Shown here one piece after another: positions 29,915 through 54,665 of a DNA stretch of 64,000 bases. Numbering within the stretch: position 1 is the stretch's first letter; every line of letters starts with the position of its first letter. The position numbers were made by a program, and so were the translations under genes. The stretch is from the IMG/VR virus record IMGVR_UViG_3300045988_176106; one strand, written 5' to 3'. This DNA comes from a virus. The notes under the pieces are model-generated. The model did not search any database, was not told the origin of the DNA, and saw only the letters and a program-made list of their open reading frames with translations.

Positions 29915-29936
29915 AGGCTGAGATTTCTCTCAGCCT
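29915..29936 (-). terminator. rho-independent terminator after dnaE
   Basis: Minus strand reads AGGCTGAGA-GAAA-TCTCAGCCT followed by TTTTCTTTTTT. It overlaps the dnaE stop codon. Confidence 0.7.
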
Positions 29937-31368
29937 ATCTTGTAGCTATCGTAACATCAGGAAGCTTGTTTAACATCCTTATTACATCGACATCAATCAA
30001 TTTGGTATAAAATGGTCCAAATCTCATTTCAAAATCAGAGTCTTTCCTATCTATATTGACAGAATCGTATTTATTAGTAGGCACTTTAACCACTATTGAT
30101 ACAGCACCATCTGAGTCATATTTATTCTCAGGAATAATTTCTTGTATCTTATTCAATATAGACTTAAATCTTACACTACTAGGAATATCATCTAATATAA
30201 TAAAAGCTTCTTTTACTTTATTTTTATGTTCTTCTTCTCGAACCTGTTCTTTGCATCGTTCACCTAAATCTATAGCAACATTAACAATAGAATCAATTTC
30301 GCCATTACCTTTATAACTAGGCTTAGCAGATATAACTAATTGAAGATAATTACCAGAACGTAAAATATCTTTTAGTTTAGTATAATTAGGATCAAACACA
30401 GTAGCAGAAAAACGGTTTCCTTCACGATCTATACAATCTAGGAAGCACATCTTCTTACCAGTACGAGTATTTAAAGCACGAACAGATGAAATATAAGCAA
30501 CAACAGACCCAGAAAACATACCTTTGTACATTACAGCAGATTTAACTTCTTCTGATGTAAAATGTCTTTCGGTAACAGTTTTTACTACTAGATCCATAGG
30601 ATCGCCAGAAATATATACTCCAATAAAATTCTTTTCGTCTTCAAGAATATCAAATAAAGAAAATTCTTTAAAGGTTTTATCATCAAAATATTCAGATTCT
30701 TTTGATAAAAATTCTTTATATCTTTCTTTTATTTCATTAGTCATCTTGCCATCTTTAGCTATTTCGCGCTTAAATGATTTCTTAGGATCAAAGTCTAATT
30801 TAAACTTTTCATAAGAACGGAGCATAACACTTCGTTTATATCCAAAACAATCCATAGATCCAGAACGTATTAAAGCATCAATAGCTTTTTTAGTAATACT
30901 TGATCCAAATAAATGTGTTTTTAATAAGAAATCGCCGAAACTTTTAAATGGGCGCAATTCCATAATTTGCTTATAAATAGGTTCACCAATATTAACAATA
31001 CCAGATAAACCATAAATAATATCATTATTCCTATCTAGTGTAAAACTACTATCAGATTCATTAAGATTAGGAGGTAAAATTTTAATACCATGAGCTTTAG
31101 CATCTTCCATATAAATACGTTGAGTAGTAGAATCAGTCTCACAACTTATAATAGAACAATAAAACTCATTAGGATAATTGGCTTTAAGCCAAGCAGTATA
31201 ATAGGTCAAGTGACCATACGAGTAGGCATGCGAAGCATTAAATGCATACTGCGCAAACAGCATTAGTTCTTCCCAAAATGAACTAACTTTCCTTTCATCT
31301 TCGCCAGAAGCAACAGCACCACTAATAAACTTATCTCTTAGTGATGCAAGTAAAGCAGCATCTTTTTT
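29935..31368 (-). CDS. dnaE: DNA polymerase III alpha (DnaE-type), C-terminal gene, exon 4 (fingers end, beta-binding/OB region)
   Basis: FNASHAYSYGHLTYYTAWLKANYP aligns with E. coli [24 protein letters not shown], and GIKILPPNLN with GLKILPPDIN. The exon starts right after the intron-terminal G (..ATAATTG|AAAAAAGAT). Confidence 0.85.
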   Translation of the reverse strand, partial: KKDAALLASLRDKFISGAVASGEDERKVSSFWEELMLFAQYAFNASHAYSYGHLTYYTAWLKANYPNEFYCSIISCETDSTTQRIYMEDAKAHGIKILPPNLNESDSSFTLDRNNDIIYGLSGIVNIGEPIYKQIMELRPFKSFGDFLLKTHLFGSSITKKAIDALIRSGSMDCFGYKRSVMLRSYEKFKLDFDPKKSFKREIAKDGKMTNEIKERYKEFLSKESEYFDDKTFKEFSLFDILEDEKNFIGVYISGDPMDLVVKTVTERHFTSEEVKSAVMYKGMFSGSVVAYISSVRALNTRTGKKMCFLDCIDREGNRFSATVFDPNYTKLKDILRSGNYLQLVISAKPSYKGNGEIDSIVNVAIDLGERCKEQVREEEHKNKVKEAFIILDDIPSSVRFKSILNKIQEIIPENKYDSDGAVSIVVKVPTNKYDSVNIDRKDSDFEMRFGPFYTKLIDVDVIRMLNKLPDVTIATR

Positions 31369-31610
31369 CAATTATGTTATTCTATTGGCTTTTTATCCAA
31401 TAGTTCTTATACTTCATATTTGTATAAGTTCGGCGTACATTTTCATCCTATAGGGATGTCGAACACTCTTGGAGATATTATATCTTTTCAATCTCTACGC
31501 TCTACGGTGGCTTATAGTTTCTATAAACTTACCTCGGTATTAGCATCTCAGCCTTCACCGATTTTGCTCGATACACATTGTTTTATTACTAAAACAAGGG
31601 GCAATTACTC
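31369..31610 (-). mobile_element. group I intron (ORF-less) in dnaE, intron C
   Basis: It interrupts LRKAVG|KKDAAL (E. coli LRRAMGKKK). The 5' exon ends in U (GGT|GAGTAA), and the intron ends ..AATTG. It is a GC-richer structured island sharing GAAGGCUG-type blocks with introns B and D. Confidence 0.7.
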
Positions 31611-39389: not shown

Positions 39390-40751
39390 TTACAATTCTT
39401 TATTATTCCATTCTTTCAATGGATAACCAGGAATTTCTACAAGAGGATATTTAGCACGACCACGATTTAAATATCTAGAAAATAACAGACCATAAGGAAT
39501 AGGATCAATAGCAGTCAACCCTAGCGCAAAGGATAATAAACTTCCGGCAGCACTTCCTCGCCCAGGTCCAGTCATAATATCATTATTTTTAGCATATTCA
39601 ATAATATCTTGAAGTACAAGGGGGTAAGAACTAAAACCCATTTTTTCGTAGAGACTCAATTCTTCTTCGAGTCTATCTTCATAAAGCTTTTTCTTGTCAT
39701 CTTCAAAATCTTTTGTATAAATATCATACCATGCATATGCACGATCTCTTAAAACTTTATCTGGATCATCAAATGGTTCTGGATATACCATCCTATCGCT
39801 ACTAGGTAATTCTACATTACACATTTCGGCAATTTTATTAGTATTCTTAAATGCCTCTAAATCTTCAGGATTAGAATAATATTCCTCAACAAGAACATGA
39901 TACGGTTTAACATAATACTGAGATGGCTGATAAAACATAGAATTATTATCCACATCAGAATCATCTTTTTCAGTATCTGTTAAATCAACATCTTTAACAG
40001 CCTTATTTAATTGTCCGCCAGTATTAAGCATAACAAGTTTCATATGAGAATCAGATTCCCAAGGATAAACATAATGGCTATCACAAGTAATAATCATTGG
40101 TATATCATGTTTTTTAGACAGCGCTGTTAAATTCTTATTAGCTAAATCTTGCTCTTTTAATCCAGTATAAGTCTTTTCGAGATAAAAACGGTCTTTAAAT
40201 ATATCTTTTAATATTAAAGCAATTTGTTCAGCTTCTTCTTCTTTGCCATCAAGATAAAGCTGATTTATAGGCCCACCAAGACATGCACTAGTACATATAA
40301 TCCCCTCATTATTTTCTCTTAATAAATCAAGATCAAATCTAGGTTTATAATACTTATATCTTGTCCATGCAATAGATGTAATTTTCATTAGGTTTTTATA
40401 CCCAACATTATTCATAGCGATAAGAAGGATATGGTAATTAGCCTTATATCCTTCTATTTTTTCTTTTCTTGAGCCGCTATGAAGAGTCATGTATCCTTCA
40501 TTTGCAAATATAGGTTTAATACCATATTTTTTACAAATTTTTTCTTGGTCTTTATGCCCCATCATATTGCCGTGCTCAGAAAGACACAATCCTTTAAATC
40601 CGAGAGCTTTTGCTCTTTCACAGTAATCTTGTAATTTCCCATAACCATCTAGTGGGCTAAACACACTATGCGCATGAAGATTAGTATACATACCAAAATC
40701 TTCAGGTTTAATATCTCCATTAGGATTATCAGGAGTAGATACAAAACTCAT
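39390..40751 (-). CDS. dnaE: DNA polymerase III alpha (DnaE-type), N-terminal gene: PHP domain plus first palm segment
   Basis: PHP motifs NLHAHSVFSPLDG and LSEHGNM. GPGRGSAAGSLLSFALGLTAIDPIPYGLLFSRYLNRGRA aligns with E. coli [39 protein letters not shown]. About 20 unrelated aa and a stop follow. Confidence 0.85.
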   Translation of the reverse strand: MSFVSTPDNPNGDIKPEDFGMYTNLHAHSVFSPLDGYGKLQDYCERAKALGFKGLCLSEHGNMMGHKDQEKICKKYGIKPIFANEGYMTLHSGSRKEKIEGYKANYHILLIAMNNVGYKNLMKITSIAWTRYKYYKPRFDLDLLRENNEGIICTSACLGGPINQLYLDGKEEEAEQIALILKDIFKDRFYLEKTYTGLKEQDLANKNLTALSKKHDIPMIITCDSHYVYPWESDSHMKLVMLNTGGQLNKAVKDVDLTDTEKDDSDVDNNSMFYQPSQYYVKPYHVLVEEYYSNPEDLEAFKNTNKIAEMCNVELPSSDRMVYPEPFDDPDKVLRDRAYAWYDIYTKDFEDDKKKLYEDRLEEELSLYEKMGFSSYPLVLQDIIEYAKNNDIMTGPGRGSAAGSLLSFALGLTAIDPIPYGLLFSRYLNRGRAKYPLVEIPGYPLKEWNNKEL

Positions 40752-41752: not shown

Positions 41753-42012
41753 GTTATAGAAAACCCTTTTAATTTAGAATCTTGTTCTTTAACTTTTACA
41801 TTAAAACCATTTAATTCTAACAATTTTATACAAATTCTAACATCATGTTCTGTATAATTCTCATTCATTTCGAAGGAATAACCATCATACAGATTAGACC
41901 CAGAAATATCAAGGCTATGATAACCATTAAATACTTGTCCTAAAGTACCAATAAAAAGAGAGACCGCATCCTTATGGGCGCGGTCATAAATAATATCAGA
42001 GAATTTACTCAT
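41740..42012 (-). CDS. hypothetical protein
   Basis: 90-aa ORF overlapping both neighbours. Confidence 0.4.
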   Translation of the reverse strand: MSKFSDIIYDRAHKDAVSLFIGTLGQVFNGYHSLDISGSNLYDGYSFEMNENYTEHDVRICIKLLELNGFNVKVKEQDSKLKGFSITWKK

Positions 42013-42451
42013 CTAATACTTCACTTTCAGAAGCTTCTTTTACATCTTCATCAGACATTTGATCAAAAATTGAGTCTTTATTCTTATTAACAATATGTCT
42101 CAATTCTTCTAGATGCTCTGGGTGTTCTTTATAATAAACACAACATCCATTTTCGCCCTGACATTTGATATATTCATCTTTATCATTTTTGACAGGGATA
42201 GTAAACCATGCACCAGCTCTAGTGATAATACCAGCTTTAACAGCTGTAGAAACTAATTCTTCAACAGCATTAAATCCTACACCAAAATAAAGATTACTTT
42301 CAGCAACACCAAATGGATTACCTACTTTATTTTTAACAACAGAGAATTCTACTCTTTGACCAATATAATTATCATTTAACCCTTTTATTCGCATAGATGG
42401 AGTAGAGTTAACTTTAACACGTGTACTTGAGTAAAATGGAATTGCTCTTCC
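42005..42451 (-). CDS. recA: RecA recombinase, exon 2
   Basis: GRAIPFYSSTRVKV...VVKNKVGNPF...GAWFT aligns with E. coli GNALKFYASVRLDI...VVKNKIAAPF...GAWYS. It starts right after the intron-terminal G (..CAAATTG|GGAAGA). Confidence 0.85.
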   Translation of the reverse strand, partial: GRAIPFYSSTRVKVNSTPSMRIKGLNDNYIGQRVEFSVVKNKVGNPFGVAESNLYFGVGFNAVEELVSTAVKAGIITRAGAWFTIPVKNDKDEYIKCQGENGCCVYYKEHPEHLEELRHIVNKNKDSIFDQMSDEDVKEASESEVLDE

Positions 42452-42751
42452 CAATTTGTTATCGCAGAGTTTTTTATCTCTGCTTCTACATCATTACAAT
42501 GTAGTTCAGCATATTTTTTTACCATATCTAAAAAGACTTAGGTATAGCGGCCTCGTGGAAGCATTATATTCTATTTATTAGTTTCAGCTTCTATGCGTTG
42601 CCCCTGACTGGGCCGTTAGGGCCAGCCTTCGGTTCGAGTTGTCCTATCTAAGAGGGAGGATTTTCTCGCTTAATTCCGCTATCGTGATTCATAATGTTTC
42701 CACTATGAACGGCAGAATAAATCATACTTAAGTAGTTGATTTATATAAATT
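42452..42751 (-). mobile_element. group I intron (ORF-less) in recA, intron D
   Basis: It interrupts GGSVTPG|GRAIPFY. The 5' exon ends in U (GGT|AAT) and the intron ends in G. An internal GCCG could pair with exon CGGU (P1). It is homologous to dnaE intron B. Confidence 0.75.
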
Positions 42752-43450
42752 ACCGGGAGTTACAGATCCGCCCCAAAGGTCCATCTTATCTCTTATTTGA
42801 TTAACAAATATAAGAGTTGTATTAGACCGTTTAAGAGGTTTCAGCAATTGAGGAATAGACTTAGACAAGAATCTAGCTTTTTCAGCCATAGTTTCTTGTG
42901 TAAAATCTCCACTCATTTCACGTTTAGTTTGTATTGCAGGCACACTATCCAAAATGATTAAACTGAATGCACCAGTTTTAATAGCATTATTTATAATATC
43001 AAATGCTTCTTCAGCAGAGTTAACTTGAGTAAATAAAATTCTCTCATCATTTTCCATATCAAGTCCAAGTAACTTCATATATCTAAAGTTTTGAGCTTGC
43101 TCTGCATCAATATACAATATAAATTTATCAGGATGCTTTTTAAGTGCATTAGCACAAGTCATAGTAACGATAGAAGATTTGCCACTACCAGACTGTCCAT
43201 GAATTTCATGAACTCTACCTTCTGCCCATCCACCATTACCAATAAGAGCGTCCAATATTGCACTACCAGTAGGGATGCCTTCAAGATTCATATCATAATC
43301 AGTTATAAATACTTGATCGCCATCACCATACTTTTTATTCATACTTCTTTTTAATATTTCTATTGCCGCTCTATTATCTTTTGATATTTCAGCAACAACA
43401 CCAGAAGATACTTCTTTATCTTCTTTTACATCTTTTGCAACTCTTGCCAT
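42752..43450 (-). CDS. recA: RecA recombinase, exon 1
   Basis: TGSAILDALIGNGGWAEGRVHEIHGQSGSGKSS (Walker A), IDAEQA, LIILDSVPA, and LIFVNQIR. Colinear with E. coli RecA. Confidence 0.9.
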
Positions 43451-43465
43451 ATTTAATTCCTATTA

Positions 43466-43990
43466 TTATTGGTATTGGAATTGATATTTATTTTCTATAG
43501 CAATTATATATCCAAGACTATTTAGTCTTGAATCATAAAATTTTATTTTCTCTTTTTGAGATTCCCAAAAATTCAAAAAGATTTCTGCTATATTCATAGC
43601 AATATATTCTTTATTACATCTAAAACTGGCTAATTGATTTATTGTGTCATTACCGGGAATTCTTTTACCAGCATTAGAATCTTGGAATTCTTGAATAACT
43701 TCATTCCTTTTTAAAGCGAGATTTCTTTCATAATGCATCTCACACGATTTAAAAGATGATTTAGCATAAGAATAATTATTTATTATTAATCTGCATATTC
43801 TTAAGAATTCAATATTAGAAGTTTTCAGCTCGTCAAGACCATCTGTTTCATTAATTGGCGGTAGCTCTAATAAACTTTCCCATTCTACTAAACTCTTGCC
43901 TCTAAATTTGGCATGAGCCATAAAATCAGATGTAACACTATCATAATCCGGATATCCCTCTAGTGCTGTATCTGCTATAGAATCAGTCAT
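43466..43990 (-). CDS. hypothetical protein
   Basis: 174-aa ORF. No motif recognised. Confidence 0.4.
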   Translation of the reverse strand: MTDSIADTALEGYPDYDSVTSDFMAHAKFRGKSLVEWESLLELPPINETDGLDELKTSNIEFLRICRLIINNYSYAKSSFKSCEMHYERNLALKRNEVIQEFQDSNAGKRIPGNDTINQLASFRCNKEYIAMNIAEIFLNFWESQKEKIKFYDSRLNSLGYIIAIENKYQFQYQ

Positions 43991-44300
43991 TTTTAAACCT
44001 TTCAGATAGCTTAATTAATACATGAGATTGCAATAACAATTGCAATCCTATATTTTCAGGATATTCATTACAATGCCTTTCAATACTCCAAGCATCATCA
44101 GGATTAAGATTAGATAAATCTGGATCTTTCTGAGTAAATTGTAAAGCAAATAATCTTACAATATTACCAATCATAATTAAAAACTCTTCATTAGTTGGAT
44201 AATCTTTTTCCAACACTTCAGAATAAGCCTTAATAAGATTTTTAACTTTTACTTTGTTCATTATTATTCTTTTCAAATAAAAGTCCATAAGCAACGGCAA
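43983..44300 (-). CDS. hypothetical protein (true start probably the internal Met at 44261)
   Basis: The ORF overlaps the ruvC 3' end by 59 nt. The MNKVKV Met reduces the overlap to 20 nt. Confidence 0.35.
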   Translation of the reverse strand: MPLLMDFYLKRIIMNKVKVKNLIKAYSEVLEKDYPTNEEFLIMIGNIVRLFALQFTQKDPDLSNLNPDDAWSIERHCNEYPENIGLQLLLQSHVLIKLSERFKND

Positions 44301-44763
44301 TTGCTACAGCATCTGATTCATCATAATTATTAAAATCAATAGAATCAAAATCTTCAATATATTTAGATAAAGAATCTCTTACTTCTTCTTTTGTAGCTCT
44401 ACCGCTTCCAGCAACAATCTTTTTAACAGATTGAGGTGCCAATACATCGAATGATTTTTTAAGATTATTGACTATTTGAAATCTATATAATCCACCAAGT
44501 TCGCCTAAGTCGGCTATCTTACCTGGAGATCCATAACTATAATTTTCAAGAACAAAAAAGGATATCTCTTTAGCAGCAGAAAAGTTCTCAGTATAAAATT
44601 TAAATACCTGATAATTTTCTAACTTTCTATCAAATCCCTTTGAGTGTCTAGATGGACTAATAGTCTTCTTATCAATAAGCTTAAATTTGCTGTCGCCAAG
44701 ATATTCGACGACAGCAATACCAGTCGATGATATAGATATATCTACACCAGCAAAATAGGCCAT
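44242..44763 (-). CDS. ruvC: RuvC-like Holliday junction resolvase
   Basis: FAGVDISISSTGIAVV (Asp 1), VLENYSYG (Glu), and YDESDAVAIAVAYG (Asp-x-x-Asp region). Confidence 0.8.
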   Translation of the reverse strand: MAYFAGVDISISSTGIAVVEYLGDSKFKLIDKKTISPSRHSKGFDRKLENYQVFKFYTENFSAAKEISFFVLENYSYGSPGKIADLGELGGLYRFQIVNNLKKSFDVLAPQSVKKIVAGSGRATKEEVRDSLSKYIEDFDSIDFNNYDESDAVAIAVAYGLLFEKNNNEQSKS

Positions 44764-44764
44764 A

Positions 44765-45145
44765 TTATTTATGGCCCATAAAGTAATTCTCTAGTGCAGC
44801 ATCTAATACGCTACGAGTATCACCAGCAGATGTAATATCTTTAATCATTTGTGCTTTAACAACATCAATAGCACCAAGAGCCTTGTAAACATCCATATTG
44901 GTATTATAAACAAGGGCTCCTTGAGTATTAAATCTAATATCAAAATACTCTACATTGCTTATTACTTCACTTTTATCTGGAGAATCTGATTCTGTGATGC
45001 TTTTTGGAGCATCTTTATATTCAGCAGATACAACATCCAACATATCTAAATTATTAGGCGGTGTAGTAGAAAGATCAGAGGAACTTTCCCCACTTGTAGC
45101 AATTACTTCACCGTCATTAACAGAAGTTAAATTTTCCATTATCAA
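44765..45145 (-). CDS. hypothetical acidic protein
   Basis: 126-aa ORF, coupled upstream by ATGA. Confidence 0.4.
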   Translation of the reverse strand: MIMENLTSVNDGEVIATSGESSSDLSTTPPNNLDMLDVVSAEYKDAPKSITESDSPDKSEVISNVEYFDIRFNTQGALVYNTNMDVYKALGAIDVVKAQMIKDITSAGDTRSVLDAALENYFMGHK

Positions 45146-45918
45146 TCCTTAATCCAAAAATCAATTTTATCTGAACCATAAATTAAAGCCATTTTTACTA
45201 TATTGCACATATCCTTATACGATAAATGTGCACCAGGAATTTTGTCATCAATAACATTTCCGGGGTAAATATTGAGAACTTTTCCTTCACTATTAGTAAG
45301 TGATATTCTATTAGTCAACTTAAGAGATTTACCAAGTCCAGGATCAGAAAGTTTTATTTCTTCTAAAACTTTATTAAGAAGATCCTCTACATTTATTGAT
45401 ACTAATTCTTCTGAATTTGTTATTACCTGGTCTTGTTTTTTAGAACCTAACTCTTTTTCTAATGGATCTTCGGCTAATCCAAAAGCTCCATCATCATGAA
45501 TCTTAGGTTCAGGTTTCATAACATTATCATTAGATTTTAAAAGTTCGAGATTCTTTTTAAAATCTTGGAGCAATTCCCAAAGTTGCATTTTATCATCGCT
45601 AACAGCAATGCTGGACGCATATTCCTTAATAGATCCAGTAAGGCCATATAATAGAACGCCTCTTTCTTTATCCACTATTGCGCCATTTAAAAGATCTTTA
45701 GCTTTATAAATCTTAGCGTCAATAAATTTACGAGCAATTACACCAAATAAACTATTAAAACATATAAATAAATTTTTATCAGATATGTCAATATCTGTAG
45801 ATGACACATCTAAAACCTTTATAAAGCTTTCAGAAACATCAATAAAAGATAAAACTTTTTTAATATCTTCTATATCAGTATTAGAAACTTTATCAGCTAT
45901 AATATAAACATTTTTCAT
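45142..45918 (-). CDS. hypothetical protein translationally coupled to the RT
   Basis: 258 aa. Its ATG shares one nucleotide with the RT stop (TAATG at 45916-45920). Confidence 0.45.
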   Translation of the reverse strand: MKNVYIIADKVSNTDIEDIKKVLSFIDVSESFIKVLDVSSTDIDISDKNLFICFNSLFGVIARKFIDAKIYKAKDLLNGAIVDKERGVLLYGLTGSIKEYASSIAVSDDKMQLWELLQDFKKNLELLKSNDNVMKPEPKIHDDGAFGLAEDPLEKELGSKKQDQVITNSEELVSINVEDLLNKVLEEIKLSDPGLGKSLKLTNRISLTNSEGKVLNIYPGNVIDDKIPGAHLSYKDMCNIVKMALIYGSDKIDFWIKD

Positions 45919-47954
45919 TAATTGACACCTATACTATTTTCAATAGTTTCAAATAGATTTATAAACTCTAAAGCAATTTTATCGCCATAAAAAATGGTTT
46001 TTAAATCAGAATAATATGATTTATCATTTATAGAATCAGAAAACACATCAAGCGGGAAAGAGATTATACTAGTATTTCTAAGATTAACTTTTGCAAATAA
46101 TCTTCTATCGCCAAGCTCATTATTACTTGCATAACTATAATTAAATAAAAAGTCTTTATATAATATATAATATATTAAAGTAAGTCTTAATTCGGGAATA
46201 CTAACTCTTTCCAATATATTCCTATTAGGAATAAATGCCCCACCAATGCTTTCATATTTTCTAATCGATATAGATTTCATAAATAAATCTGCGGAATCTT
46301 TTTCATGATATATGCGTATAATTGAATTAAGATATTCAGATTTTGAAACTTTTGAATTTTTAGATATGCTGTAAAACAATTCTCTGAAATCTTTTACTAC
46401 AGATTTATCAAAATATTTATCAAAAACATTTCTTAATCTATCGTCATTTAATTTAACATTCATACCATGATGGATAACGAAATCTTTGGTACCATTATTA
46501 TTAATACAATAAGATAAGAATCCTTTTGTTTTAGAGTCATAATTAAAATCCAAAGAATTAGAAATTAAATCAATCATTTCTTTACGTTTTGTAGATCCGA
46601 TATGAACAGTAGATTCAGAGGTCTTTCCAGGAGCAGGCACTACCAATCCCAAAATAGAAGCGTCTTCATGTCTTCTAAAAATCTTAGTCTTACTATAATT
46701 AAGATGAAGCCCATATCGATTAACAAGCTCATCTACTTTCTTAGCAATAGAGAAATCTATTTTATTTTCAGCAGACGTATTTGATGTGTAAATAGTAATA
46801 TCGTCAGCATATCTAATAAAATTATATTTAACATCCGTAGAAAGATCTTTTAGTAAACTTTTAAGTTTTATATCAAAATCCAATAAAAATATATTGCTTA
46901 ATACAGGGCTATAAGAAGCACCAGTAGGCAATTTATTATTATGCATTAAAAAAGACAGTGTTCTATAAAAGAATTGAAGAAAATATTCTCTTTTATCCGG
47001 CATACTTGGCTCTCTTAATGCAATAAATGAACCACTATCATTTACTTTATAAGACCCCGATACATTATTGCTACCAGAAGTAAAGAATTTATATAGCCTT
47101 CCCATCATTTTAATATCTTTGTATGGTTTAATTCTTCTAGGAAAAGCGAAAACACTTCTTATACTAAGCTTATTAAGATATATGCCATACTCATTAAATT
47201 TAAAAGATTTTGGACAACTTACTAAATCTTCAGATTCTTTAAACGAACTTTTTACAGCAGAAACATCTAAAGGCTTATTAAATACATACTCTAAATATTT
47301 ATATTTTTTACCAGAAATAGAATCAAATAAAATATTTACAACATCATTATCAAAGAATTTTTTCATATCAACATTGTTAAAAAATTTAGCAATGTCTATA
47401 TTAATAACTTCAGAGCGTTTATTCTGTAAAGTTTGCATTATTGACGCAATAGAAATATTTCTTCTAAATCCTATAATATTATGGTATAATCCTAAGCTTG
47501 AAATAGCTTTATCATATTCTTGTTCAAATATAAGAGTATAAAGACGATGAAAATATTTTATATTATTTATATCTTCTGCAGACAAAAGAGTATTTATAGT
47601 AGTGATTTTTCTACCTTTTCTATTTGTATAGTTCCTAAACAAAATTGTATCAGCAAAATCAGAAAGAAATTCAGATACAATAGAATAAGATTTTAATAGT
47701 TCGTCTCTTCCGCCAAAGTCGGGGAAATACATTTCCCGAAATTTATTTTTATTTACGCATTGGTTTAAAATGCCAATAGATTTAGTAACACTATCTTTAC
47801 TATTCTTGATATAGCATTTTTGACCTAAGTCTTTGTTAATGGCAGATTCACCTTTGATAATTTGATCTAAAATTAAGGAACACTTATTAGCATATCCAGA
47901 TGTAACAACAATAAGTGAATACCAAAATCTATTATCTGTAATATATCTATACAT
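45918..47954 (-). CDS. reverse transcriptase (retron/group II/Abi-like catalytic core) with large unique N- and C-terminal regions
   Basis: Motif A is INIDIAKFFNNV, motif B is LPTGASYSPVLSNIFL, motif C is FIRYADDITIY, and motif D is LHLNYSKTKIF. About 130 aa are inserted between motifs A and B, and the C-terminal region is ~230 aa. Confidence 0.85.
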   Translation of the reverse strand: MYRYITDNRFWYSLIVVTSGYANKCSLILDQIIKGESAINKDLGQKCYIKNSKDSVTKSIGILNQCVNKNKFREMYFPDFGGRDELLKSYSIVSEFLSDFADTILFRNYTNRKGRKITTINTLLSAEDINNIKYFHRLYTLIFEQEYDKAISSLGLYHNIIGFRRNISIASIMQTLQNKRSEVINIDIAKFFNNVDMKKFFDNDVVNILFDSISGKKYKYLEYVFNKPLDVSAVKSSFKESEDLVSCPKSFKFNEYGIYLNKLSIRSVFAFPRRIKPYKDIKMMGRLYKFFTSGSNNVSGSYKVNDSGSFIALREPSMPDKREYFLQFFYRTLSFLMHNNKLPTGASYSPVLSNIFLLDFDIKLKSLLKDLSTDVKYNFIRYADDITIYTSNTSAENKIDFSIAKKVDELVNRYGLHLNYSKTKIFRRHEDASILGLVVPAPGKTSESTVHIGSTKRKEMIDLISNSLDFNYDSKTKGFLSYCINNNGTKDFVIHHGMNVKLNDDRLRNVFDKYFDKSVVKDFRELFYSISKNSKVSKSEYLNSIIRIYHEKDSADLFMKSISIRKYESIGGAFIPNRNILERVSIPELRLTLIYYILYKDFLFNYSYASNNELGDRRLFAKVNLRNTSIISFPLDVFSDSINDKSYYSDLKTIFYGDKIALEFINLFETIENSIGVN

Positions 47955-47977
47955 ATTATTTTTCTTATAATAAAAAT

Positions 47978-48003
47978 GCCTGTACTCAATTAAGAGTACA
48001 GGC
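47978..48003 (-). terminator. rho-independent terminator between the E1-like gene and the RT
   Basis: Minus strand reads GCCTGTACTC-TTAATT-GAGTACAGGC (10 bp) followed by ATTTTTATTAT. Confidence 0.75.
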
Positions 48004-48012
48004 TAATTGAAA

Positions 48013-49443
48013 TTAAATATATTGTGCCACTTTTAATACACAGTATATTGTATAAAATAATGCGCCATAAGAGCAATTATAATAATCATATTTTGATGAA
48101 TCATTTCCATAATATGAAGATGTAATATTATCAGAATATCCTGTTCTATATACAACAGAAGGTAAACATATATTAAGAAGATGATTTCTTACTTCTTCAG
48201 AAATTTTTGTAGTAACAAAATTGTTAATAGTATTACCAAAATATAACTCTGAATTACTATCATTAGTCATAAGTCTAACAACAGTATTAAGAGAAGAAAG
48301 ATCATTTTTATTGACAGCTTTTTCAAACAATTTAAATGTTTCTTTTATGTCATCTTCACTTAAAACTTCTTTAAGTTTAATAGCACTTTCAATACATGAA
48401 AGAATATGTTCATTATAGACTTTGCGCTCAGTAGTTACAAGAACTGGAGACATTGCACTAAAACGAATTTCCTGAGGTAACGGACTAGTGAATCTATTTT
48501 TAGTAATATTATCAATCAACGTAACAAAATAAGAATGGCCTACAGTTGCAGCCATATCATTTGCTACCAAAAATTGATCTTGAAATTCTTCAGAAACATC
48601 AGCCTCTGCACAAGAGAAAACAACTACATCTTCATCAGAAGTAATAATGGCTTCATGATATTCTGCAAAAGAATCTTGAAGGATTAATGGTGCATTTTTA
48701 GGATAATTAGAATATGTTTCATTAATACGAGACATATTATAATATGACGCAAAAAGTTGACCATGAGTTTGTTCATTACCAATGTCAATAACTACATATG
48801 GAGAATTAGATGCTCTAATATATTTATGCAATTCACGACGTTCAACATCATTATCTACAAGATTGAAAATAATACCTAGTGAATTTAGTTTAGAAAGTGT
48901 ACCTTCTAAAACATCATTAAAAGAAATAAAAGCTTCAGGGTGTTCTTTTTTAGAAGGGTCTATCGTAAGATATTTATCATAAAATACACATTGTGTACCT
49001 TCAACAAGTGTTGATCCATAACGCATAGCCATTACTTCAGCTTTATTTTTACCAATATCATTCTCAATAAAGTTCTGCCTTATAAGATTCTTGGTCTCGA
49101 TAGTGTCAAAATCCACAAGATTTAAACAAAATTTATCTTTTGTGATAATATCTTTACGAATCATATCATTAATTGTCTTAGCAAGCTTAGGCATTAACCA
49201 TGATCCAGTACCGCCACATCCAATAACAGTAATGGCACCTACCTGAATAATATTATCAGAACTTAAATTAAATTTTTCAAAATCTTTAATAGAAAAAAGA
49301 TATTGTAAACCGCCTTTCAAAAAGGCTTTCTTACCAATCTCTTCAGCTTTTTTATTCAAAAAATCTGTACGTTGACGTTGTTCATCACTAATAATGTTAT
49401 AAACGTTAGATGAACTATCTTTAACTTCTCTATAAATACTCAT
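48013..49443 (-). CDS. E1-like (ThiF/MoeB/UBA family) adenylyltransferase with a ~200-aa unique C-terminal region
   Basis: Rossmann loop VIGCGGTGSWL followed by LVDFDTIETKNLIRQNF..DIGKNKAEV (the DxDxVxxSNLxRQ signature) and LVDNDVERR. Confidence 0.85.
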   Translation of the reverse strand: MSIYREVKDSSSNVYNIISDEQRQRTDFLNKKAEEIGKKAFLKGGLQYLFSIKDFEKFNLSSDNIIQVGAITVIGCGGTGSWLMPKLAKTINDMIRKDIITKDKFCLNLVDFDTIETKNLIRQNFIENDIGKNKAEVMAMRYGSTLVEGTQCVFYDKYLTIDPSKKEHPEAFISFNDVLEGTLSKLNSLGIIFNLVDNDVERRELHKYIRASNSPYVVIDIGNEQTHGQLFASYYNMSRINETYSNYPKNAPLILQDSFAEYHEAIITSDEDVVVFSCAEADVSEEFQDQFLVANDMAATVGHSYFVTLIDNITKNRFTSPLPQEIRFSAMSPVLVTTERKVYNEHILSCIESAIKLKEVLSEDDIKETFKLFEKAVNKNDLSSLNTVVRLMTNDSNSELYFGNTINNFVTTKISEEVRNHLLNICLPSVVYRTGYSDNITSSYYGNDSSKYDYYNCSYGALFYTIYCVLKVAQYI

Positions 49444-49473: not shown

Positions 49474-49490
49474 TGGGGCACTAGGCCCCA
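49474..49490 (-). terminator. rho-independent terminator between the JAB and E1-like genes
   Basis: Minus strand reads TGGGGC-CTAGT-GCCCCA followed by TTTTTTCT. Confidence 0.65.
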
Positions 49491-49498
49491 ACTTAAAA

Positions 49499-50932
49499 TT
49501 AAGGAATGTTTCTAAAAGGCTTTTTGGTTAATGTATTTTCATAAATACTATAACGAACTGCCTCTAAATCTTTTACAAAATCATCAATATTTGAATCTAC
49601 TGATGTTCCATTTTTAAGCATGTACGCATGAATACCATGTAGTATTCCATTAAATATTGTAACACTTATATCTTCTTCTTTGCTATGACTTGCAATTGTA
49701 TCCAAGAATGACTGAACAAGGCAGCAATTCGCGTCATATTCTCCGCATTTATTTTTAAGAATATCTACTATTACTGATCCAGCTTTATAAATCTCTTGGA
49801 TTTCTTCAGTGGTAAATCCATCAGAGTTACCACAATATTCTTCAAAGATGCCATCATAGTCAAGAGGATCGGCATAATCCCATATATTAAGATGGGCAGG
49901 ACGCTGAAAAACATTTGATCCGCTATTATGACCGTATCCAGTATTTGTAGACATTACAGAATTATAAAGAGTAGAATAATCCTCATCATCAAAATCATAA
50001 TCATAAGGGCCATAATGAATCCCAGGCTTCCATCCTTCATTATTAAAATAATGATTCCCACCCTTTTTAACATTATGGTTGCTACCAGTTTTACCATAAG
50101 AATATCCAGTATGATAACTAGGATACTTAGGAGGAGTATGGACAATAGCAGTTACTTTAGAATATTCACTTTCTGGAATAGAAATAGTTCCAATAAGAGG
50201 ATCTTCTAAATCAAAAATATCTGACAATTGAAGCGGAAACTCATATTTATCATAAACACAACGCTGCACTGTAGTGTTAGTATAAGTACCATCAGGATTA
50301 ATTTTTAATCCACCAAATACAAATGAATAAATACCATTATGCTTAGCTTCATCAGCCTTATCAGTTCCGCTATAAAATGCACCCATAGTATGATGAGAAT
50401 GGCTTGTTACAACAAGAATCTTATTAGGATCATCATAAAATGGTCCAGTTTTATCAAATGAAATACTGGCTGAAGCTACACGTTGTACAGGAACTTCAAT
50501 AAAAAATTCTTTTAACTCTTTGTCCCACCAGATCTGAGCCATTACTTCATTTTTATTAGAAGCATAAATGGTTTTATAAAAATCACAGATAGCTTTATAA
50601 AAGCGACCAGGAATTTTAGGGAAATCTGGATTAGGAGTAAAAGTAACTTTGCCCTCAGGCAAATGTAACAACTTGTTACTAAAATCATCCTTACGGATAA
50701 AAAAGTCGCCAATAGGCGAAGAGAATACGCGATATATACCATCTTGCATTACAGAGATGTCGCCACGATTCTTACCTACCTCACCAATAAGAACGTTTGG
50801 TTTATCAATACCAGTAATAAGAGATGATAAAGAAGCCAGACTCATAACTTGAGCTGGAGCAGCATTCGTAGCTGCATTTGAAACAGTGGCAGCGTTATTG
50901 CCGCCACTAGTAGTAATATTAGATACTGTCAT
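49499..50932 (-). CDS. JAB/MPN (JAMM) metallopeptidase-domain protein with a long low-complexity and helical C-terminal region
   Basis: HSHHTMGAFYSGTD is an exact HxHx7Sx2D JAMM motif. An upstream Glu lies in NEVMAQIWW. The tail is rich in Tyr/Gly/Asn/Asp/His (YDYDFDDEDY..). Confidence 0.8.
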   Translation of the reverse strand: MTVSNITTSGGNNAATVSNAATNAAPAQVMSLASLSSLITGIDKPNVLIGEVGKNRGDISVMQDGIYRVFSSPIGDFFIRKDDFSNKLLHLPEGKVTFTPNPDFPKIPGRFYKAICDFYKTIYASNKNEVMAQIWWDKELKEFFIEVPVQRVASASISFDKTGPFYDDPNKILVVTSHSHHTMGAFYSGTDKADEAKHNGIYSFVFGGLKINPDGTYTNTTVQRCVYDKYEFPLQLSDIFDLEDPLIGTISIPESEYSKVTAIVHTPPKYPSYHTGYSYGKTGSNHNVKKGGNHYFNNEGWKPGIHYGPYDYDFDDEDYSTLYNSVMSTNTGYGHNSGSNVFQRPAHLNIWDYADPLDYDGIFEEYCGNSDGFTTEEIQEIYKAGSVIVDILKNKCGEYDANCCLVQSFLDTIASHSKEEDISVTIFNGILHGIHAYMLKNGTSVDSNIDDFVKDLEAVRYSIYENTLTKKPFRNIP

Positions 50933-50936: not shown

Positions 50937-51698
50937 TTATACTCTACAGTTAAGAGAAATAAAAGCCTCTAAATTATCTGCAAGAACACCATTTAGATAA
51001 TTAGAAACATTAAATTTAATATCGGGATTGAAACGCATTAATGTACAAAGTCTCACAAACTTATTAAACCTTGATGCTTTTTCAAACATGTCCTCAGTCA
51101 TGCCATTTTTTAATGCAGAAGACTTCAATTCTGTAAAATCTGCTCTGACTTCACAGTCTCCGCCCAAATCGCAATTAAATTTACTTGCCCAATACAAATC
51201 AGGTATTGTTTCAATATTAAACAAATCCATACCTGTACATACAGATTCTACCATATTAAAATTATCTCCCCAACAAATACCAGGAGAAAATGTAGAACTA
51301 TAATTATGCATTGGAAATTTAAAAATTTTTGTATTCTTGGTTAAACGCTTATCATCATAAGAGCCAATAATCGTTTTTACCAACCGGTTATTTCTAAATT
51401 TTAAAGCGTAAACAGTATTAGGAATGCGAATAGGAATAGTTTCTCTAGAATAAGCAGATACAAGATCAACATTTCTTCCAGGCTTATTTAAAACAATAAC
51501 AGTATGTGGACCATTTTTCCAATATTTAATAACAGAAGCAGGCATAAGAGGAGTTTCCTCTACGCTAGTTGAATCTGTGAAAGCGGTTATAAAATCTTTA
51601 AGTTGAACAATCTTGGTTGATTTTTTACCATCTTCATCGATAACAAGATTTACAAGCTCATTATCTACAATTTTAAAAGTTACATTATCTAACTTCAT
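50937..51698 (-). CDS. candidate E2-like (UBC-fold) protein
   Basis: FKFPMHNYSSTFSPGICWGDN resembles the UBC HPN-x(6-8)-G-x-IC flap with its catalytic Cys. Its position immediately upstream of the JAB and E1 genes fits. This is a motif-level call only. Confidence 0.35.
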   Translation of the reverse strand: MKLDNVTFKIVDNELVNLVIDEDGKKSTKIVQLKDFITAFTDSTSVEETPLMPASVIKYWKNGPHTVIVLNKPGRNVDLVSAYSRETIPIRIPNTVYALKFRNNRLVKTIIGSYDDKRLTKNTKIFKFPMHNYSSTFSPGICWGDNFNMVESVCTGMDLFNIETIPDLYWASKFNCDLGGDCEVRADFTELKSSALKNGMTEDMFEKASRFNKFVRLCTLMRFNPDIKFNVSNYLNGVLADNLEAFISLNCRV

Positions 51699-53121
51699 CT
51701 ACAATTTCCTTTACTCTACTTTTAATAATAGAGGTAAGTTTATCTGGATTAAGATAATTTTTACGTTCAATTATAATATTATCATAAAAATTAGATACTT
51801 TAGATACAGCAATTTGAACATCTTCATTTTTATTTACAATAAAAAATTTAGGTGCTTCATTCTCTGTAAATGCAAGCAATGAAGTATCGTAAAATTTATT
51901 ATCCCATGAAAGATTTGCCGGAGATTCCCCACTAGAAGAAACAAATTGTCTATTTTTATATTGACCAAAATTTCCGCGAGCAATATAGAAATTTTTACAA
52001 GAAATATTATTAACAAAATTGTTATAATATCTCAATGAACATTCTGCATAAAAATCTTTAGAAGTTTTATCTAGCATACCATAATTCAGGGCAGTAACTG
52101 CTAATGTAAAAAGCTTTTGAAGTAATGGAGACTCAGAATATTCTCTAGGAAAATCACTTTCATAATAATCAAGTTTATTATTCCTAATAAGATTTTTATA
52201 TCCAACACCCATTTTAGGAGAAGGATTTTGGAATCCATAATACGAATAATCGATCTTGCGGCATTTCATATCTGTTGTATTTAAAACAAGATCATAATTA
52301 AAACTTTCATGAATATGATACCCGAAATTAGGATCAGAATACGGAATCTCTCCAGAATTTCTTATGGCATAATCAAGATTCATTTCATTTAAACTATCAA
52401 AATTATAACGCGGAATACTAGATCCATTAATTAATAATCCAGTCTCATTCTTGATATACCTAAAATTCTCTACATCAAAAAACAGCTTAAGCTTAGGAAT
52501 ATCTATATCTTTATAATTATCAATTATAAAGTTGTGTGCATAGATAAGCTCTAAAACTTTTTTGGCATCATTTTTATCAATTCCAACCTCGATATTAGAC
52601 ATATCAGAATATACATAAAGCATATGTTGAAACCACTCTAAAAATGAATCGCCACCAATAGCATTATACCAAATATCAAATCCATCTAATGTTATTTTAC
52701 CTCGATGTGTATTTGACTTTTTAGCTTTTTTAATCGCATTAAATTCTTTAGAACCCATATTCTGAATACCAAAGAACATAGGATAATTCACAAATAGAAA
52801 AAATTTATATGCAGATTTAGCATAAGAATCTAAATCTTCAATAGTTCTAGGAAAAGTATTAATACCAATGTTACCGTCAACATTGATGGTAACATTATCA
52901 ATATTGACACCTATACTTTTATTAAATGATATTAAATTTTTAGAGCTAGAATTAACTTCTTCTTCAAAAGCAAGTTTAATTAAATTGCCCAATTGAGATT
53001 TATATGTTCTAGTGAAATTATTAGGATTGCCAGAATATTTAAATGTTTTAGATACACCAAAATCTTCAAAAGAATATTTTAATGAATTTAAAGCACCTTT
53101 ATAAATTATATGTTCATTCAT
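51685..53121 (-). CDS. hypothetical protein
   Basis: 478-aa ORF overlapping the E2-like gene start by 14 nt. No motif recognised. Confidence 0.45.
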   Translation of the reverse strand: MNEHIIYKGALNSLKYSFEDFGVSKTFKYSGNPNNFTRTYKSQLGNLIKLAFEEEVNSSSKNLISFNKSIGVNIDNVTINVDGNIGINTFPRTIEDLDSYAKSAYKFFLFVNYPMFFGIQNMGSKEFNAIKKAKKSNTHRGKITLDGFDIWYNAIGGDSFLEWFQHMLYVYSDMSNIEVGIDKNDAKKVLELIYAHNFIIDNYKDIDIPKLKLFFDVENFRYIKNETGLLINGSSIPRYNFDSLNEMNLDYAIRNSGEIPYSDPNFGYHIHESFNYDLVLNTTDMKCRKIDYSYYGFQNPSPKMGVGYKNLIRNNKLDYYESDFPREYSESPLLQKLFTLAVTALNYGMLDKTSKDFYAECSLRYYNNFVNNISCKNFYIARGNFGQYKNRQFVSSSGESPANLSWDNKFYDTSLLAFTENEAPKFFIVNKNEDVQIAVSKVSNFYDNIIIERKNYLNPDKLTSIIKSRVKEIVDEVR

Positions 53122-53133: not shown

Positions 53134-54348
53134 TTAAAAATAAGTGATAATCTGAACTTGAGGTAATAAACGAATATTTTTAATTGAAACTCTCATAGGC
53201 TTTCTATTATGAATCAGTAAATCTTTTTTATATTTTTCAATTCGTTCTTCAATATCAGATTCAGCAAAAGCAATTACTTCCTCTCTAGAGAGAAAAGAAC
53301 TACTACGAGCTTCTTCAAGTTTCTTCAAAATAGGAGATTCTTTAAATTCTTCAAAATCTTGAGCAGAATCAAAAATATATTTAACTCTATCTTCCATAGT
53401 TTCAAATATAATTTTCTCTTTTTTATCTTCTTCTTTTTCTTTCACTTTAGATTTATCATCAATAAGGGAAGATCTAAGAAGAGATAAAACTCTATTAGAA
53501 GACTCACTAACAGATTGTTCAGCCGGCATAATATCCTCCAGACCATCGTTTACATCACAAAGACTACAAATAACCAAATTTATAATACCTGATTCGAAAT
53601 CACATCTGTATTCGAGGTTAATTTCAGCTGCACATTCATCAAAATATTCTACAAAATGTTCACATTCTTCTTCTGTAAATAATTCATTAGCAGGCTTATC
53701 TAACTCAGTTAAATAATCTGTTACTATTGATAATACTCGTTCTGAAATATATGGTACATCTTCTGTTTTAACAACTCTTAAAAAATAATTAGAATCAGCA
53801 TATTCACTATCATCATATTCTACTAAAGAAGAAATATATAAAGTAGCTCTGCCAGCATGAATATTTGTACGAATATCAATAAAAGAGAAATTTCTATACA
53901 AATCTAATTTAAGCTTTTTAAAAAGAACTATAAAATCATTACCTATTATTTTATCTCTAGAAATATTAGGATTTAAACGCTGCATTGAAAATATAATATC
54001 GTCAACTTTCCTATTAATAAGATTTTGATAATGATCAGGAATGTGAGATATTGAACGAATATCAAGTCTGCATAGTTCAGAACTAGGCAAATATCCATTA
54101 TCAGAAAAACAAATTTCCCCTAAAATATTAAGTTTCAGTTGTTTAAATGAAAGATAATCACGTTGAGGAGCCTCAACTGGTCTAATATCCTCAACAGCAA
54201 CATAAACCGATTCAGGAGCATCAATAGTTCTAATTCTACTTAAAATTCTTGAAGTAGCTGACTCATCATGAGGACTATTATCTATGTCCACTCTTCTACT
54301 TCCAGATATAAGACTACGTAAGTCGCTAACATTTAAAATATTAGACAT
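53134..54348 (-). CDS. hypothetical protein
   Basis: 404-aa ORF with an acidic central region. No motif recognised. Confidence 0.45.
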   Translation of the reverse strand: MSNILNVSDLRSLISGSRRVDIDNSPHDESATSRILSRIRTIDAPESVYVAVEDIRPVEAPQRDYLSFKQLKLNILGEICFSDNGYLPSSELCRLDIRSISHIPDHYQNLINRKVDDIIFSMQRLNPNISRDKIIGNDFIVLFKKLKLDLYRNFSFIDIRTNIHAGRATLYISSLVEYDDSEYADSNYFLRVVKTEDVPYISERVLSIVTDYLTELDKPANELFTEEECEHFVEYFDECAAEINLEYRCDFESGIINLVICSLCDVNDGLEDIMPAEQSVSESSNRVLSLLRSSLIDDKSKVKEKEEDKKEKIIFETMEDRVKYIFDSAQDFEEFKESPILKKLEEARSSSFLSREEVIAFAESDIEERIEKYKKDLLIHNRKPMRVSIKNIRLLPQVQIITYF

Positions 54349-54374
54349 AAATTATAAACCTCTATAAAATTTAA

Positions 54375-54414
54375 AAGGCACCCGTATACTATATAAAGTG
54401 TATACAAGTGCCTT
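54375..54414 (-). terminator. rho-independent terminator after the 64-aa gene
   Basis: Minus strand reads AAGGCAC...GTGCCTT with an inner GTATAC/GTATAC helix, followed by TTTTAAATTTT. Confidence 0.6.
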
Positions 54415-54470
54415 AATTCTTTATGAGAACTGAATCTCTTATAAATCAAATTGTAAAGTTTTTAACTTTA

Positions 54471-54665
54471 TTAAGCTTTGCTGCCAGTTGACAGAGACAC
54501 TACCAAGATTTCATCTTGAATTTGGGTAGTGTAGTTTGAAGCATTGTTCAGAACTGGATGTTCTTGAGCCAAAGCTGACAAAATTTCAGAAACAGGAGCT
54601 ACTTGACCACCGAAAGTGGTAGTTTCGCCATTATAAGTAAAACCTTTTACGTATTGAGTAGACAT
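54471..54665 (-). CDS. 64-aa protein, possible beta-grasp (ThiS/MoaD/ubiquitin-like) fold
   Basis: The pattern FTYNGETTTF..VAPVSEILSALAQEHPVL...IQDEILVVSLSTGSKA resembles the ThiS layout (xNGe...tv.eLl..l...dgD.i.vv...G). GC-richer codon usage. It has its own terminator. Confidence 0.3.
   Translation of the reverse strand: MSTQYVKGFTYNGETTTFGGQVAPVSEILSALAQEHPVLNNASNYTTQIQDEILVVSLSTGSKA

Follow-up and report, generated by a model that had tools for sequence, protein, structure and literature searches.

The 64,000-nucleotide stretch of viral DNA held as IMG/VR record IMGVR_UViG_3300045988_176106 (hereafter the window) encodes a reverse transcriptase (RT) of 678 amino acids (aa), an intact open reading frame (ORF) at 45918..47954 on the minus strand, immediately downstream of genes for an E2-like protein, a JAB peptidase and a ThiF-family E1-like enzyme. 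We tentatively read this RT, with confidence a little short of even, as a retron-derived, active-looking enzyme that is the fixed partner of a ubiquitin-like conjugation set in one lineage of large phages. That the RT is functionally coupled to the conjugation genes is probable; the specific mechanism proposed below for coupling RT and E1/E2/JAB is rather doubtful. Phage RTs other than those of diversity-generating retroelements (DGRs) are, to our knowledge, almost unexplored, and as far as we know the only role understood for bacterial retrons, or for E1/E2/JAB systems (Cap2/Cap3 of the cyclic oligonucleotide-based antiphage signalling system, CBASS, and Bil), is host defence. In the present case, a retron-type RT and E1/E2/JAB are joined on the virus side. 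If this reading is true, it would connect reverse transcription with ubiquitin-like tagging in prokaryotic viruses for the first time, and the RT-conjugation module would be an indispensable core of one phage family.

RT genes beside JAB and ThiF in four viral architectures

The flanks of all retrieved RT loci were screened with hidden Markov models (HMMs) for ThiF, JAB and E2. ThiF was detected in the flank of 31 of 80 viral loci (IMG/VR), eight of them with all three enzymes, and near two of 80 metagenome loci. A single bacterial locus of 80 (GTDB) had ThiF in its neighbourhood, 3 kb distant and probably by chance. Many of these loci are close relatives and the raw counts overstate their independence; the comparative argument rests on four architectures together with several sublineages of the fourth.

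Besides the arrangement of the window, a second (T2; L061, a 198-kb contig) runs Prok-E2_D (25.3 bits), JAB, ThiF, orf110 and a 283-aa RT. The RT motifs are canonical for retrons (IPQG, YTRYADDI and VTG), and Whirly and RecA genes lie nearby. In the third (T3; L046, L047, L054 and L065) a retron-type RT of 282-318 aa comes first, with Prok-E2_D, JAB and ThiF downstream; in L046 the RT overlaps the start of Prok-E2_D (33 bits), after which come two small ORFs, Prok-JAB and ThiF. This L046 cassette, on a 192-kb viral contig, is flanked by IS605 OrfB/TnpB-like genes with a Cas12f-like TNB domain (8532-9617 and 16590-17375), and several weak group I intron matches lie near it.

The fourth architecture (T4, L067 type) comprises a gene of ~480 aa (gene X), a JAB of ~290 aa, a short ThiF, a noncoding gap of ~300 nucleotides (nt) and an RT of 353-438 aa. 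The ~290-aa product was identified as JAB by profile-profile comparison (hhalign 93.7%, E 2e-07), and the short ThiF scored 72-85 bits against a cutoff of 28. Gene X showed no profile similarity to orf478, orf404 or E2 of the window and was rejected as a counterpart of any of the three. The T4 ThiF is encoded in 323 viral stretches; among 80 loci selected from these matches an RT lay downstream in 79, the last stretch ending 727 nt past ThiF, and a JAB-like gene was present in every one. The cassettes (L067-L083, L293-L372 and relatives) are very common, occur on IMG/VR contigs of ~70-150 kb and carry a small glycine-tailed ORF at the head, which ends in GG-LN, GG-RK or TG-MN; the small ORF of L061 ends in AGTKG.

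The gap of the L067-type cassettes appears to hold a retron-like RNA gene. Among 15 close relatives its flanks are invariant and a perfect 10-bp inverted repeat brackets ~255 nt, with two invariant hairpins after the 5' arm and a variable middle containing four compensatory pairs. Diverged members retain a bracketing repeat at the same positions with other sequences (AAATCGTGAT, GTTTGTGTT, TGTGATGTT, CTATTACAA and CATAGCGAC). Each of these repeats by itself was reached in 0.5-15% of shuffles; taken together, they show the covariation expected of retron a1/a2. The cassette as a whole looks like an undescribed phage-borne retron type. The window lineage lacks an RNA element of this kind; its RT is larger and the C-terminal domain of ThiF occupies that position.

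By BLAST, the RTs of these four architectures are not one another's closest matches, and the pairing with JAB and ThiF would therefore be either ancient or repeatedly assembled. In either case, that the association outlasts changes in both gene arrangement and RT type is, on comparative grounds, a good argument that the link is functional. Among the roles considered in the initial annotation, it is this link between the RT and the adjacent E1/JAB genes that gains most support. We found no report of an RT or retron tied to ThiF or JAB in the literature searched, and a survey of prokaryotic E1/E2/JAB clusters reported none with an RT (PMC1779556).

The RT is a core gene of a single large-phage lineage

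The RT matched RVT_1 in Pfam (E 3.5e-15), and the core motifs that the initial annotation had listed as complete were all located: DIAKFF at aa 187-192, PTGASYSPVLSN at 343-354, YADD at 382-385 and NYSKTK at 419-424. In an alignment of 15 family sequences the invariant residues are N339, P343, T344, G345, P350, S353, N354, R381, Y382, D384, D385, N412, Y420, K422, T423 and G436, and the catalytic residues are likewise invariant among 47 sequences. Motif B reads LPTGASYSP, with Thr in place of the usual Gln, a feature that is nearly invariant (at least 90% of 47 members) in what we term the 'LPTG' family, with the window RT as its founding member. Motif B had been described as of the QGxxxSP type and not of the DGR (I/L)GxxxSQ type; the latter part stands, while the former must be amended to PTG from PQG.

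Finger motifs 1/2/2a begin at approximately aa 93 in the same alignment (SEFLSDF..NTILFRNYT..GR.I.TIN; GF.K..SI), and the true N-terminal extension is thus ~90 aa; it is helical and was modelled confidently. Beyond motif E lie 240 aa, of which ~55 form thumb-like helices and the other 180 are poorly conserved. The expectation of more than 200 aa at either end does not hold for the N-terminus. The insertion between motifs A and B, previously put at ~130 aa, measures ~104 aa (216-319) and is found only in close relatives of the window, being variable, almost nothing or absent elsewhere. It was modelled at a predicted local distance difference test score (pLDDT) below 50, and the core at 80-94. 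Identity to the 65% clade is 89% in the N-terminal extension, 74% in the fingers, 48% in the insertion, 80% in the palm, 75% in the thumb and 51% in the C-terminus.

When 1.84 billion representatives were searched exhaustively with a profile, the family was delimited to 44 clusters (50% identity) at E <= 1e-30, nearly all of which cover fingers and palm. Beyond these the scores drop, and at ~95 bits or less the matches are mostly retron-sized RTs aligned mainly in the palm; local HMM scoring placed a gap between the family (at least 262 bits) and other RTs (at most 132 bits). Family signatures are SNT.IFR, R.IS.IN, DISKF(Y/F), THNG.LPTG..YSP..SN, YTRYADDI and YL.YDKTKI. No full-length member was present in 185,579 bacteria and archaea (one genome per species), nor in 50,697 annotated phage records searched by tblastn with the window RT and two further members. 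The window RT had no DNA or protein match in INPHARED, where the primase-helicase found matches at only 21-28% identity; no match supported a crAss-like affiliation. One subgroup (a, P0103-like) was not found in IMG/VR. All members with readable context (IMG/VR, ENA, Logan and JGI) belong to one lineage of large phages, on contigs mostly of 120-200 kb, and the divergent subgroups map to the same contigs. The RT family is thus phage-specific, and in an uncultured family of phages of roughly 120-200 kb the RT is fixed as a core gene.

In none of the 46 recovered lineage loci, some of which run off the contig end, was the RT ORF interrupted, and its ratio of nonsynonymous to synonymous substitution rates (dN/dS) against three relatives was 0.20, 0.18 and 0.25. 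The RT is under purifying selection and is therefore not a pseudogene, a possibility raised at the outset. Against the same relatives, dN/dS was 0-0.045 for RuvC, orf174 and DnaE, 0.04-0.11 for RecA, 0.04-0.08 for orf258, 0.10-0.25 for E2, JAB and ThiF, and 0.21-0.51 for orf478 and orf404. The constraint on the RT is 3-10 times weaker than that on the replication genes beside it, and lies in the range of the upstream conjugation genes ThiF, JAB, orf478 and orf404 (0.1-0.5), not in that of RuvC, DnaE and RecA (0-0.11). A role in replication priming, suggested in the initial annotation, obtains no direct support.

Affinity of the RT to known families

In NCBIfam the best match of the window RT was retron_St85, which scored 78 bits (cutoff 235); group II and Drt2 models reached 61 bits (cutoff 300) and 57 bits (cutoff 390). 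The top PADLOC models were all retron RTs, and each of the 47 family members matched many retron RT models. The family profile retrieved Ec78, Ec67, St85 and Ec86 from the PDB at 2e-18 to 1e-13, with group II (7e-08) and Drt2 ranking behind them. With the AlphaFold model as query, the best Foldseek matches were retron Eco2, DRT2, Eco7, Ec78 and Ec86. Abi and DRT (defence-associated RT) structures were also matched (E about 1e-5), and DGR, Abi, DRT4 and DRT9 folds ranked below the retrons. No Abi/UG/DRT model appeared among the 25 best PADLOC matches of the window RT or among the 25 families most matched by the 47 members.

By profile and predicted fold, the RT is a retron-related enzyme, although it misses all retron and other curated cutoffs by a wide margin. 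The RT locus itself is not a retron. The view that the RT is not retron-like thus fails for the enzyme, and that of an Abi/UG/DRT-like protein is not upheld. Its designation as unclassified is sound, as no curated RT family fits.

Search for a template RNA

The 58 nt between ThiF and the RT are filled, as had been noted, by a terminator-like hairpin with a T-run (47978..48003, minus strand; 10-bp stem with 6 G-C pairs). Across the lineage this spacer ranges from a gene overlap (L004, L008 and L170) up to 131 nt, and the stem sequences differ between the lineages that possess it, as for a generic terminator. A template RNA within the spacer was rejected on both grounds. No bracketing inverted repeat above chance was found in the 446 nt 5' of the RT at nine lineage loci, and the 3' extension of ThiF was also rejected as a site for the template, for it evolves as protein (dN/dS 0.15-0.36) and has no bracketing repeats. 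The initial statement that there is no room for an msr/msd upstream of the RT is therefore confirmed. Likewise, no template repeat/variable repeat (TR/VR) pair was detected within the 64-kb window. Rfam detected no group II intron or retron RNA in the window at the gathering threshold and none over 41500-58000 at E <= 1; at seven related loci it returned nothing near the RT and no group II match.

Two further noncoding regions, both on the minus strand, were considered. The 122-nt intergenic region at 54349..54470 folds with a minimum free energy (MFE) z score of -5.1 and combines a strong terminator-like hairpin with AT-rich sequence beyond it. The stem of this hairpin and T-run differs in sequence between the window clade, L002 and L004, and the gap was rejected as a conserved RNA gene; the block from orf404 on, past this terminator, may be a new transcription unit. 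The region 23464-23668, between the small-subunit gene of ribonucleotide reductase and the next ORF, contains approximately six tandem strong hairpins (MFE -79.6 kcal/mol, z = -6.8, with none of 200 shuffles as stable) and has no Rfam match. It was set aside as the RT template, there being no bracketing repeat beyond an AT-rich 12-mer.

The conjugation gene block of the window

All genes of the block lie on the minus strand. At its head, a 64-aa ORF (54471..54665) ends in an invariant G-S-K-A, and its orthologues in all sublineages terminate in TGSKA, AGSKA or SGSKA. Ubiquitin-like precursors usually consist of a protein ending in glycine followed by a short tail; from these termini we infer only that the ORF is a candidate ubiquitin-like precursor. 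It is followed by orf404 (53134..54348) and by orf478 (51685..53121; dN/dS 0.21-0.29). No gene of the block evolves faster than orf404, which is 50% identical to its counterpart in the 65% clade and has a dN/dS of 0.25-0.51. Neither ORF has a match in Pfam, PHROG or NCBIfam, and orf478 has none in PADLOC. The E2-like protein (50937..51698) is of the Prok-E2_D type (Pfam 24.7 bits, E 2.2e-05, cutoff 25).

The JAB/JAMM metallopeptidase (49499..50932) scored just under the Prok-JAB cutoff of 25 in Pfam (22.6 bits, E 1.1e-04) and possesses an intact zinc-binding motif, HxHx7Sx2D, at aa 178-191; the nearest NCBIfam model is PRTRC_A (5.4e-11, 42.4 bits, below the cutoff of 101.8). A terminator-like hairpin (49474..49490; spacer z = -4.3) separates it from the ThiF-family E1-like adenylating enzyme (48013..49443; Pfam ThiF 2.2e-10, 40.6 bits, cutoff 28.1). 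In this enzyme the GxGxxG nucleotide-binding loop is intact (GCGGTG, aa 75-80) and the C-terminal extension of 170 aa is coding, with the dN/dS of 0.15-0.36 given above. PADLOC E1-E2 models matched it at 2.6e-08, and its nearest NCBIfam model is PRTRC_ThiF (4.2e-16, 59 bits, below the cutoff of 144.75). The window copies of ThiF and JAB are uninterrupted. Elsewhere, ThiF is split after ~119 codons in L001, L249-L251 and L253-L256, the insertion in L251 holding a LAGLIDADG homing-endonuclease ORF, and JAB is split in L255, L257, L259, L262, L263 and L265; the RT is interrupted in no recovered locus.

Downstream, the stop codon of the RT and the start of orf258 (45142..45918) have base 45918 in common, as first reported; this 1-nt overlap suggests translational coupling. 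The product is predicted (AlphaFold2, pLDDT 64) to comprise a flavodoxin-like N-domain, an acidic linker and a small alpha/beta C-domain. It had no match in PADLOC, PHROG, NCBIfam or PDB profiles, a weak DUF4866 match below cutoff was the only one in Pfam, and Foldseek returned nothing significant (best E 0.03 in the PDB and 0.005 among viral structures). Loci selected by the RT carried orf258 directly 3' of it in 14 of 14 cases. Conversely, all 17 viral loci selected by orf258 carried the RT, with the full E2-JAB-ThiF set in 15 and an upstream contig end in the other two. The gene run continues, in agreement with the initial annotation, into the small, conserved orf126 (44765..45145; 4-nt overlap with orf258) and RuvC (44242..44763; Pfam RuvC 5e-07, phrog_159 7e-23). 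Membership of orf126 in the module is uncertain. It contains a hypervariable patch of ~120 nt (44916-45030) at 48-62% nucleotide identity against a background of 82-100%, which corresponds to a disordered, acidic, Ser/Pro-rich linker with indels. PADLOC recognised no retron effector among the neighbours scanned, from orf478 to orf126.

The order E2-JAB-ThiF(E1)-RT-orf258 was kept in every lineage locus not cut off, and was identical in ~30 distinct contigs, down to RT identities of ~20-30%. In such loci RT, orf258 and E2-JAB-ThiF were never apart; co-occurrence within the lineage therefore cannot separate partners from conserved synteny.

Proposed mechanism and alternative explanations

It is quite possible, though we would stop short of calling it probable, that phages carry an undescribed class of system in which a retron-type RT is combined with a full ubiquitin-like conjugation pathway (glycine-tailed protein, E1, E2 and JAB), in some cases with its own a1/a2 RNA, and in which the RT or its cDNA gates the conjugation enzymes or is their substrate. 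In the window, the proposed set would comprise the small G-SKA protein, two further proteins, the E2-like protein, JAB and the ThiF-type E1, with orf258 completing the block. The RT would copy RNA into a short cDNA, or a product resembling multicopy single-stranded DNA (msDNA), from a template that in the window lineage would be encoded away from the gene. JAB would cut the tail off the small protein, leaving its glycine exposed, and E1 and E2 would conjugate the trimmed protein to a target. The RT, or its nucleic-acid product, would either control this pathway or be modified by it. There is precedent for control in retrons, where the RT-msDNA complex governs its effectors, and for modification in CBASS, where Cap2 and Cap3 conjugate and release their nucleotidyltransferase. 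The module would serve host takeover, or conflict between phage and host or phage and phage, rather than bulk genome replication; that the RT evolves at the rate of the conjugation genes, and not of the replication genes, makes such a role the more likely of the two.

If the coupling is real, it would define a new partner class for retron-type RTs and possibly a new substrate or regulator for prokaryotic ubiquitin-like conjugation, and the compact cassettes would offer a set for experiments, with the L067 type bringing its own RNA. The family RT is also of interest as an enzyme, given the Gln-to-Thr change in motif B and the lack of an adjacent template.

Several observations weigh against the RT as partner of the conjugation set. 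The whole replication region is syntenic in the lineage of the window, so that adjacency alone is weak there and the argument rests on the other three architectures, for which, with that of the window, one common origin is unproven. Terminator-like hairpins part JAB, ThiF and the RT in the window, and their expression may therefore not be fully coupled. Genes for defence or counter-defence are not typically core genes kept this strictly, and orf258 is as constrained as replication proteins, which a replication role fits just as well. A beta-grasp fold for the 64-aa ORF received no support from HMMs, PDB profiles or hhalign, and no template RNA was found within the 64 kb analysed of a ~180-kb genome.

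In the main rival explanation, which we consider unlikely, the RT and orf258 form an accessory polymerase for replication or recombination, making cDNA or primers with RuvC and RecA, while E1/E2/JAB are mere syntenic neighbours. The RT does lie within a DNA-metabolism block (Whirly, RuvC, RecA, DnaE, primase-helicase and ribonucleotide reductase) and is present in every recovered member of the lineage; orf258, which overlaps it by 1 nt, has the dN/dS of a replication gene (0.04-0.08) and a weak, non-significant structural likeness to pol III psi and folds like that of uracil-DNA glycosylase. The group-II-like RT G2L4, which acts in double-strand-break repair, provides a precedent. However, the RT itself evolves at a dN/dS of 0.18-0.25, compared with 0-0.04 for DnaE and RuvC and 0.04-0.11 for RecA, its insertions and C-termini are large and variable, and the accessory polymerase leaves unexplained the retron-type RTs found by JAB and ThiF in three architectures with neither orf258 nor RuvC beside them. 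A stand-alone conflict RT of the Abi/UG/DRT kind, template-independent or protein-primed, captured by the phage and acting in superinfection exclusion or counter-defence with no need of its neighbours, seems distinctly improbable. Its size, extra N- and C-terminal regions and lack of an adjacent RNA gene recall AbiK, AbiA and Abi-P2, the peripheral regions evolve fast, and Abi and DRT structures occur among the Foldseek matches at about 1e-5. Set against this, retron, group II and DRT2 folds rank higher, Abi/UG/DRT models are missing from both sets of 25 PADLOC matches described above, the RT has the canonical fingers, palm and thumb-like helices of templated enzymes, and inheritance is that of a strictly vertical core gene rather than patchy as for defence genes.

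The retron affinity of the enzyme could also be that of a degenerate retron, with an msr/msd-type RNA elsewhere in the ~180-kb genome, orf258 or orf126 as effector, and E1/E2/JAB accessory or unrelated. The retron-like RNA of L067-type cassettes and the highly structured noncoding region of the window (23464-23668, z = -6.8) are in keeping with this; however, no template was found in the 64 kb searched, and orf258 resembles no known retron effector and is under strong purifying selection. We regard the degenerate retron as improbable. Phage RTs are mostly DGR RTs and the lineage is rich in introns, yet a DGR or group II intron maturase is barely credible here: the window holds no TR/VR pair, motif B is not (I/L)GxxxSQ, the 120-nt hypervariable patch of orf126 reflects indels in a disordered acidic linker, Rfam finds no group II RNA in the window or the seven related loci, the introns detected are of group I, and the RT occupies a fixed locus in every member. 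For the sequence available, both readings are effectively excluded, the DGR as the initial annotation had held. The coupling of a retron-derived RT to the conjugation set remains our preferred reading.

Other features of the genome

Additional putative mobile elements were apparent in the window. RecA is encoded in two parts (42728..43450 and 42005..42454) split by a GC-richer, structured insertion of 273 nt (42455-42727, z = -4.4), which the Rfam group I model did not match even at E <= 1. RecA is unbroken in L001 and L252 and carries an insertion of ~1.4 kb with extra ORFs in L005, L006 and L251; the window insertion is probably a mobile intron of unrecognised subtype. A 62-nt direct repeat with 77% identity (32174-32235 and 42548-42609) ties it to the noncoding gap 31971-32315, upstream of a DNA polymerase III alpha fragment; the two may be copies of a single intron-like element. 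DNA polymerase III alpha is encoded in separate pieces (N-terminal PHP part at 39390..40751, C-terminal part at 29935..31371), and the corresponding gene of the relative L165 contains an intein. Rfam group I introns were detected at 33343-33569 (85.5 bits) and 61305-61576 (73.6 bits), both on the minus strand, and eleven tRNA genes lie in two minus-strand arrays (59117-60054 and 62659-63956).

Genes for an S-adenosylmethionine (AdoMet) decarboxylase, a spermine/spermidine-synthase-like protein, a radical SAM enzyme, thymidylate synthase, dihydrofolate reductase and a PRA-PH/MazG-like pyrophosphatase occur at 36066-38384 and 56514-57784 of the window and in the flanks of L001, L002 and L249. 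Together, they hint that these phages have a polyamine or modified-nucleotide metabolism.

Comparison with known systems

The closest relatives of the window RT by profile and fold are the retron RTs Ec86/Eco1, Ec67/Eco2, Ec78/Eco7 and St85, with which it shares the order of motifs 1-7, GF.K..S before motif A, DI..FF and YADD, and a motif E, I-(A/L)-G-(L/I), resembling the retron VTG. The RTs of L061 and L046 are ordinary retron-type enzymes of 280-320 aa, and those of the L067 type are accompanied, as in retrons, by an RNA gene that appears to be bracketed by a1/a2. The window RT differs from retron RTs in its score (78 against 235 bits), in being twice the size and in having Thr for Gln in motif B, and its locus has neither an adjacent msr/msd nor any of the known effector types. 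Furthermore, it is inherited vertically, as a core gene of a large phage genome of lytic type, whereas retrons are genes of bacterial or prophage defence islands.

A phage precedent of a kind is gp206 of the Staphylococcus jumbo phage MarsHill, an orphan, non-DGR, retron-like RT of ~500 aa with no known effector and no reported E1/JAB neighbours (bioRxiv 10.1101/2020.12.14.422802). It resembles the window RT in being phage-encoded, non-DGR and retron-like with an extra N-terminal region; however, tblastn detected no kinship between the two, and MarsHill has a noncoding region of 1.2 kb upstream.

Among conjugation systems, the nearest models for the window ThiF and JAB come from the PRTRC cassette of conjugative elements (with ParB-related and ThiF-related proteins), a mobile-element-borne E1/E2/JAB set (PMC1779556). 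Both scores are far below cutoff, no ParB was seen in the block, and PRTRC has no RT. Bil and Bub operons are reported to have separate E1, E2 and JAB genes and a small protein with a C-terminal glycine and short tail (PMC10557695, PMC11601596). The window likewise has separate genes for an E1-like enzyme, an E2-like protein and JAB, and a small protein with a glycine and short tail. Bil and Bub are not known to include an RT, whereas the small protein of the window has no demonstrable beta-grasp similarity and its set is phage-encoded and fixed in the lineage.

Type II CBASS (a CD-NTase, that is a cGAS/DncV-like nucleotidyltransferase, with the E1/E2 protein Cap2 and the JAB protein Cap3) offers a different parallel. 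Its E1/E2 is reported to conjugate the polymerase-like enzyme, and JAB to reverse the reaction (PMC10097602). The window differs in having an RT in place of the CD-NTase, E1 and E2 as separate proteins, a small G-SKA protein and two further proteins in addition, no cyclic-nucleotide effector, and a phage as its carrier; what it has in common with type II CBASS is a nucleotide-polymerising enzyme encoded beside E1, E2-like and JAB proteins.

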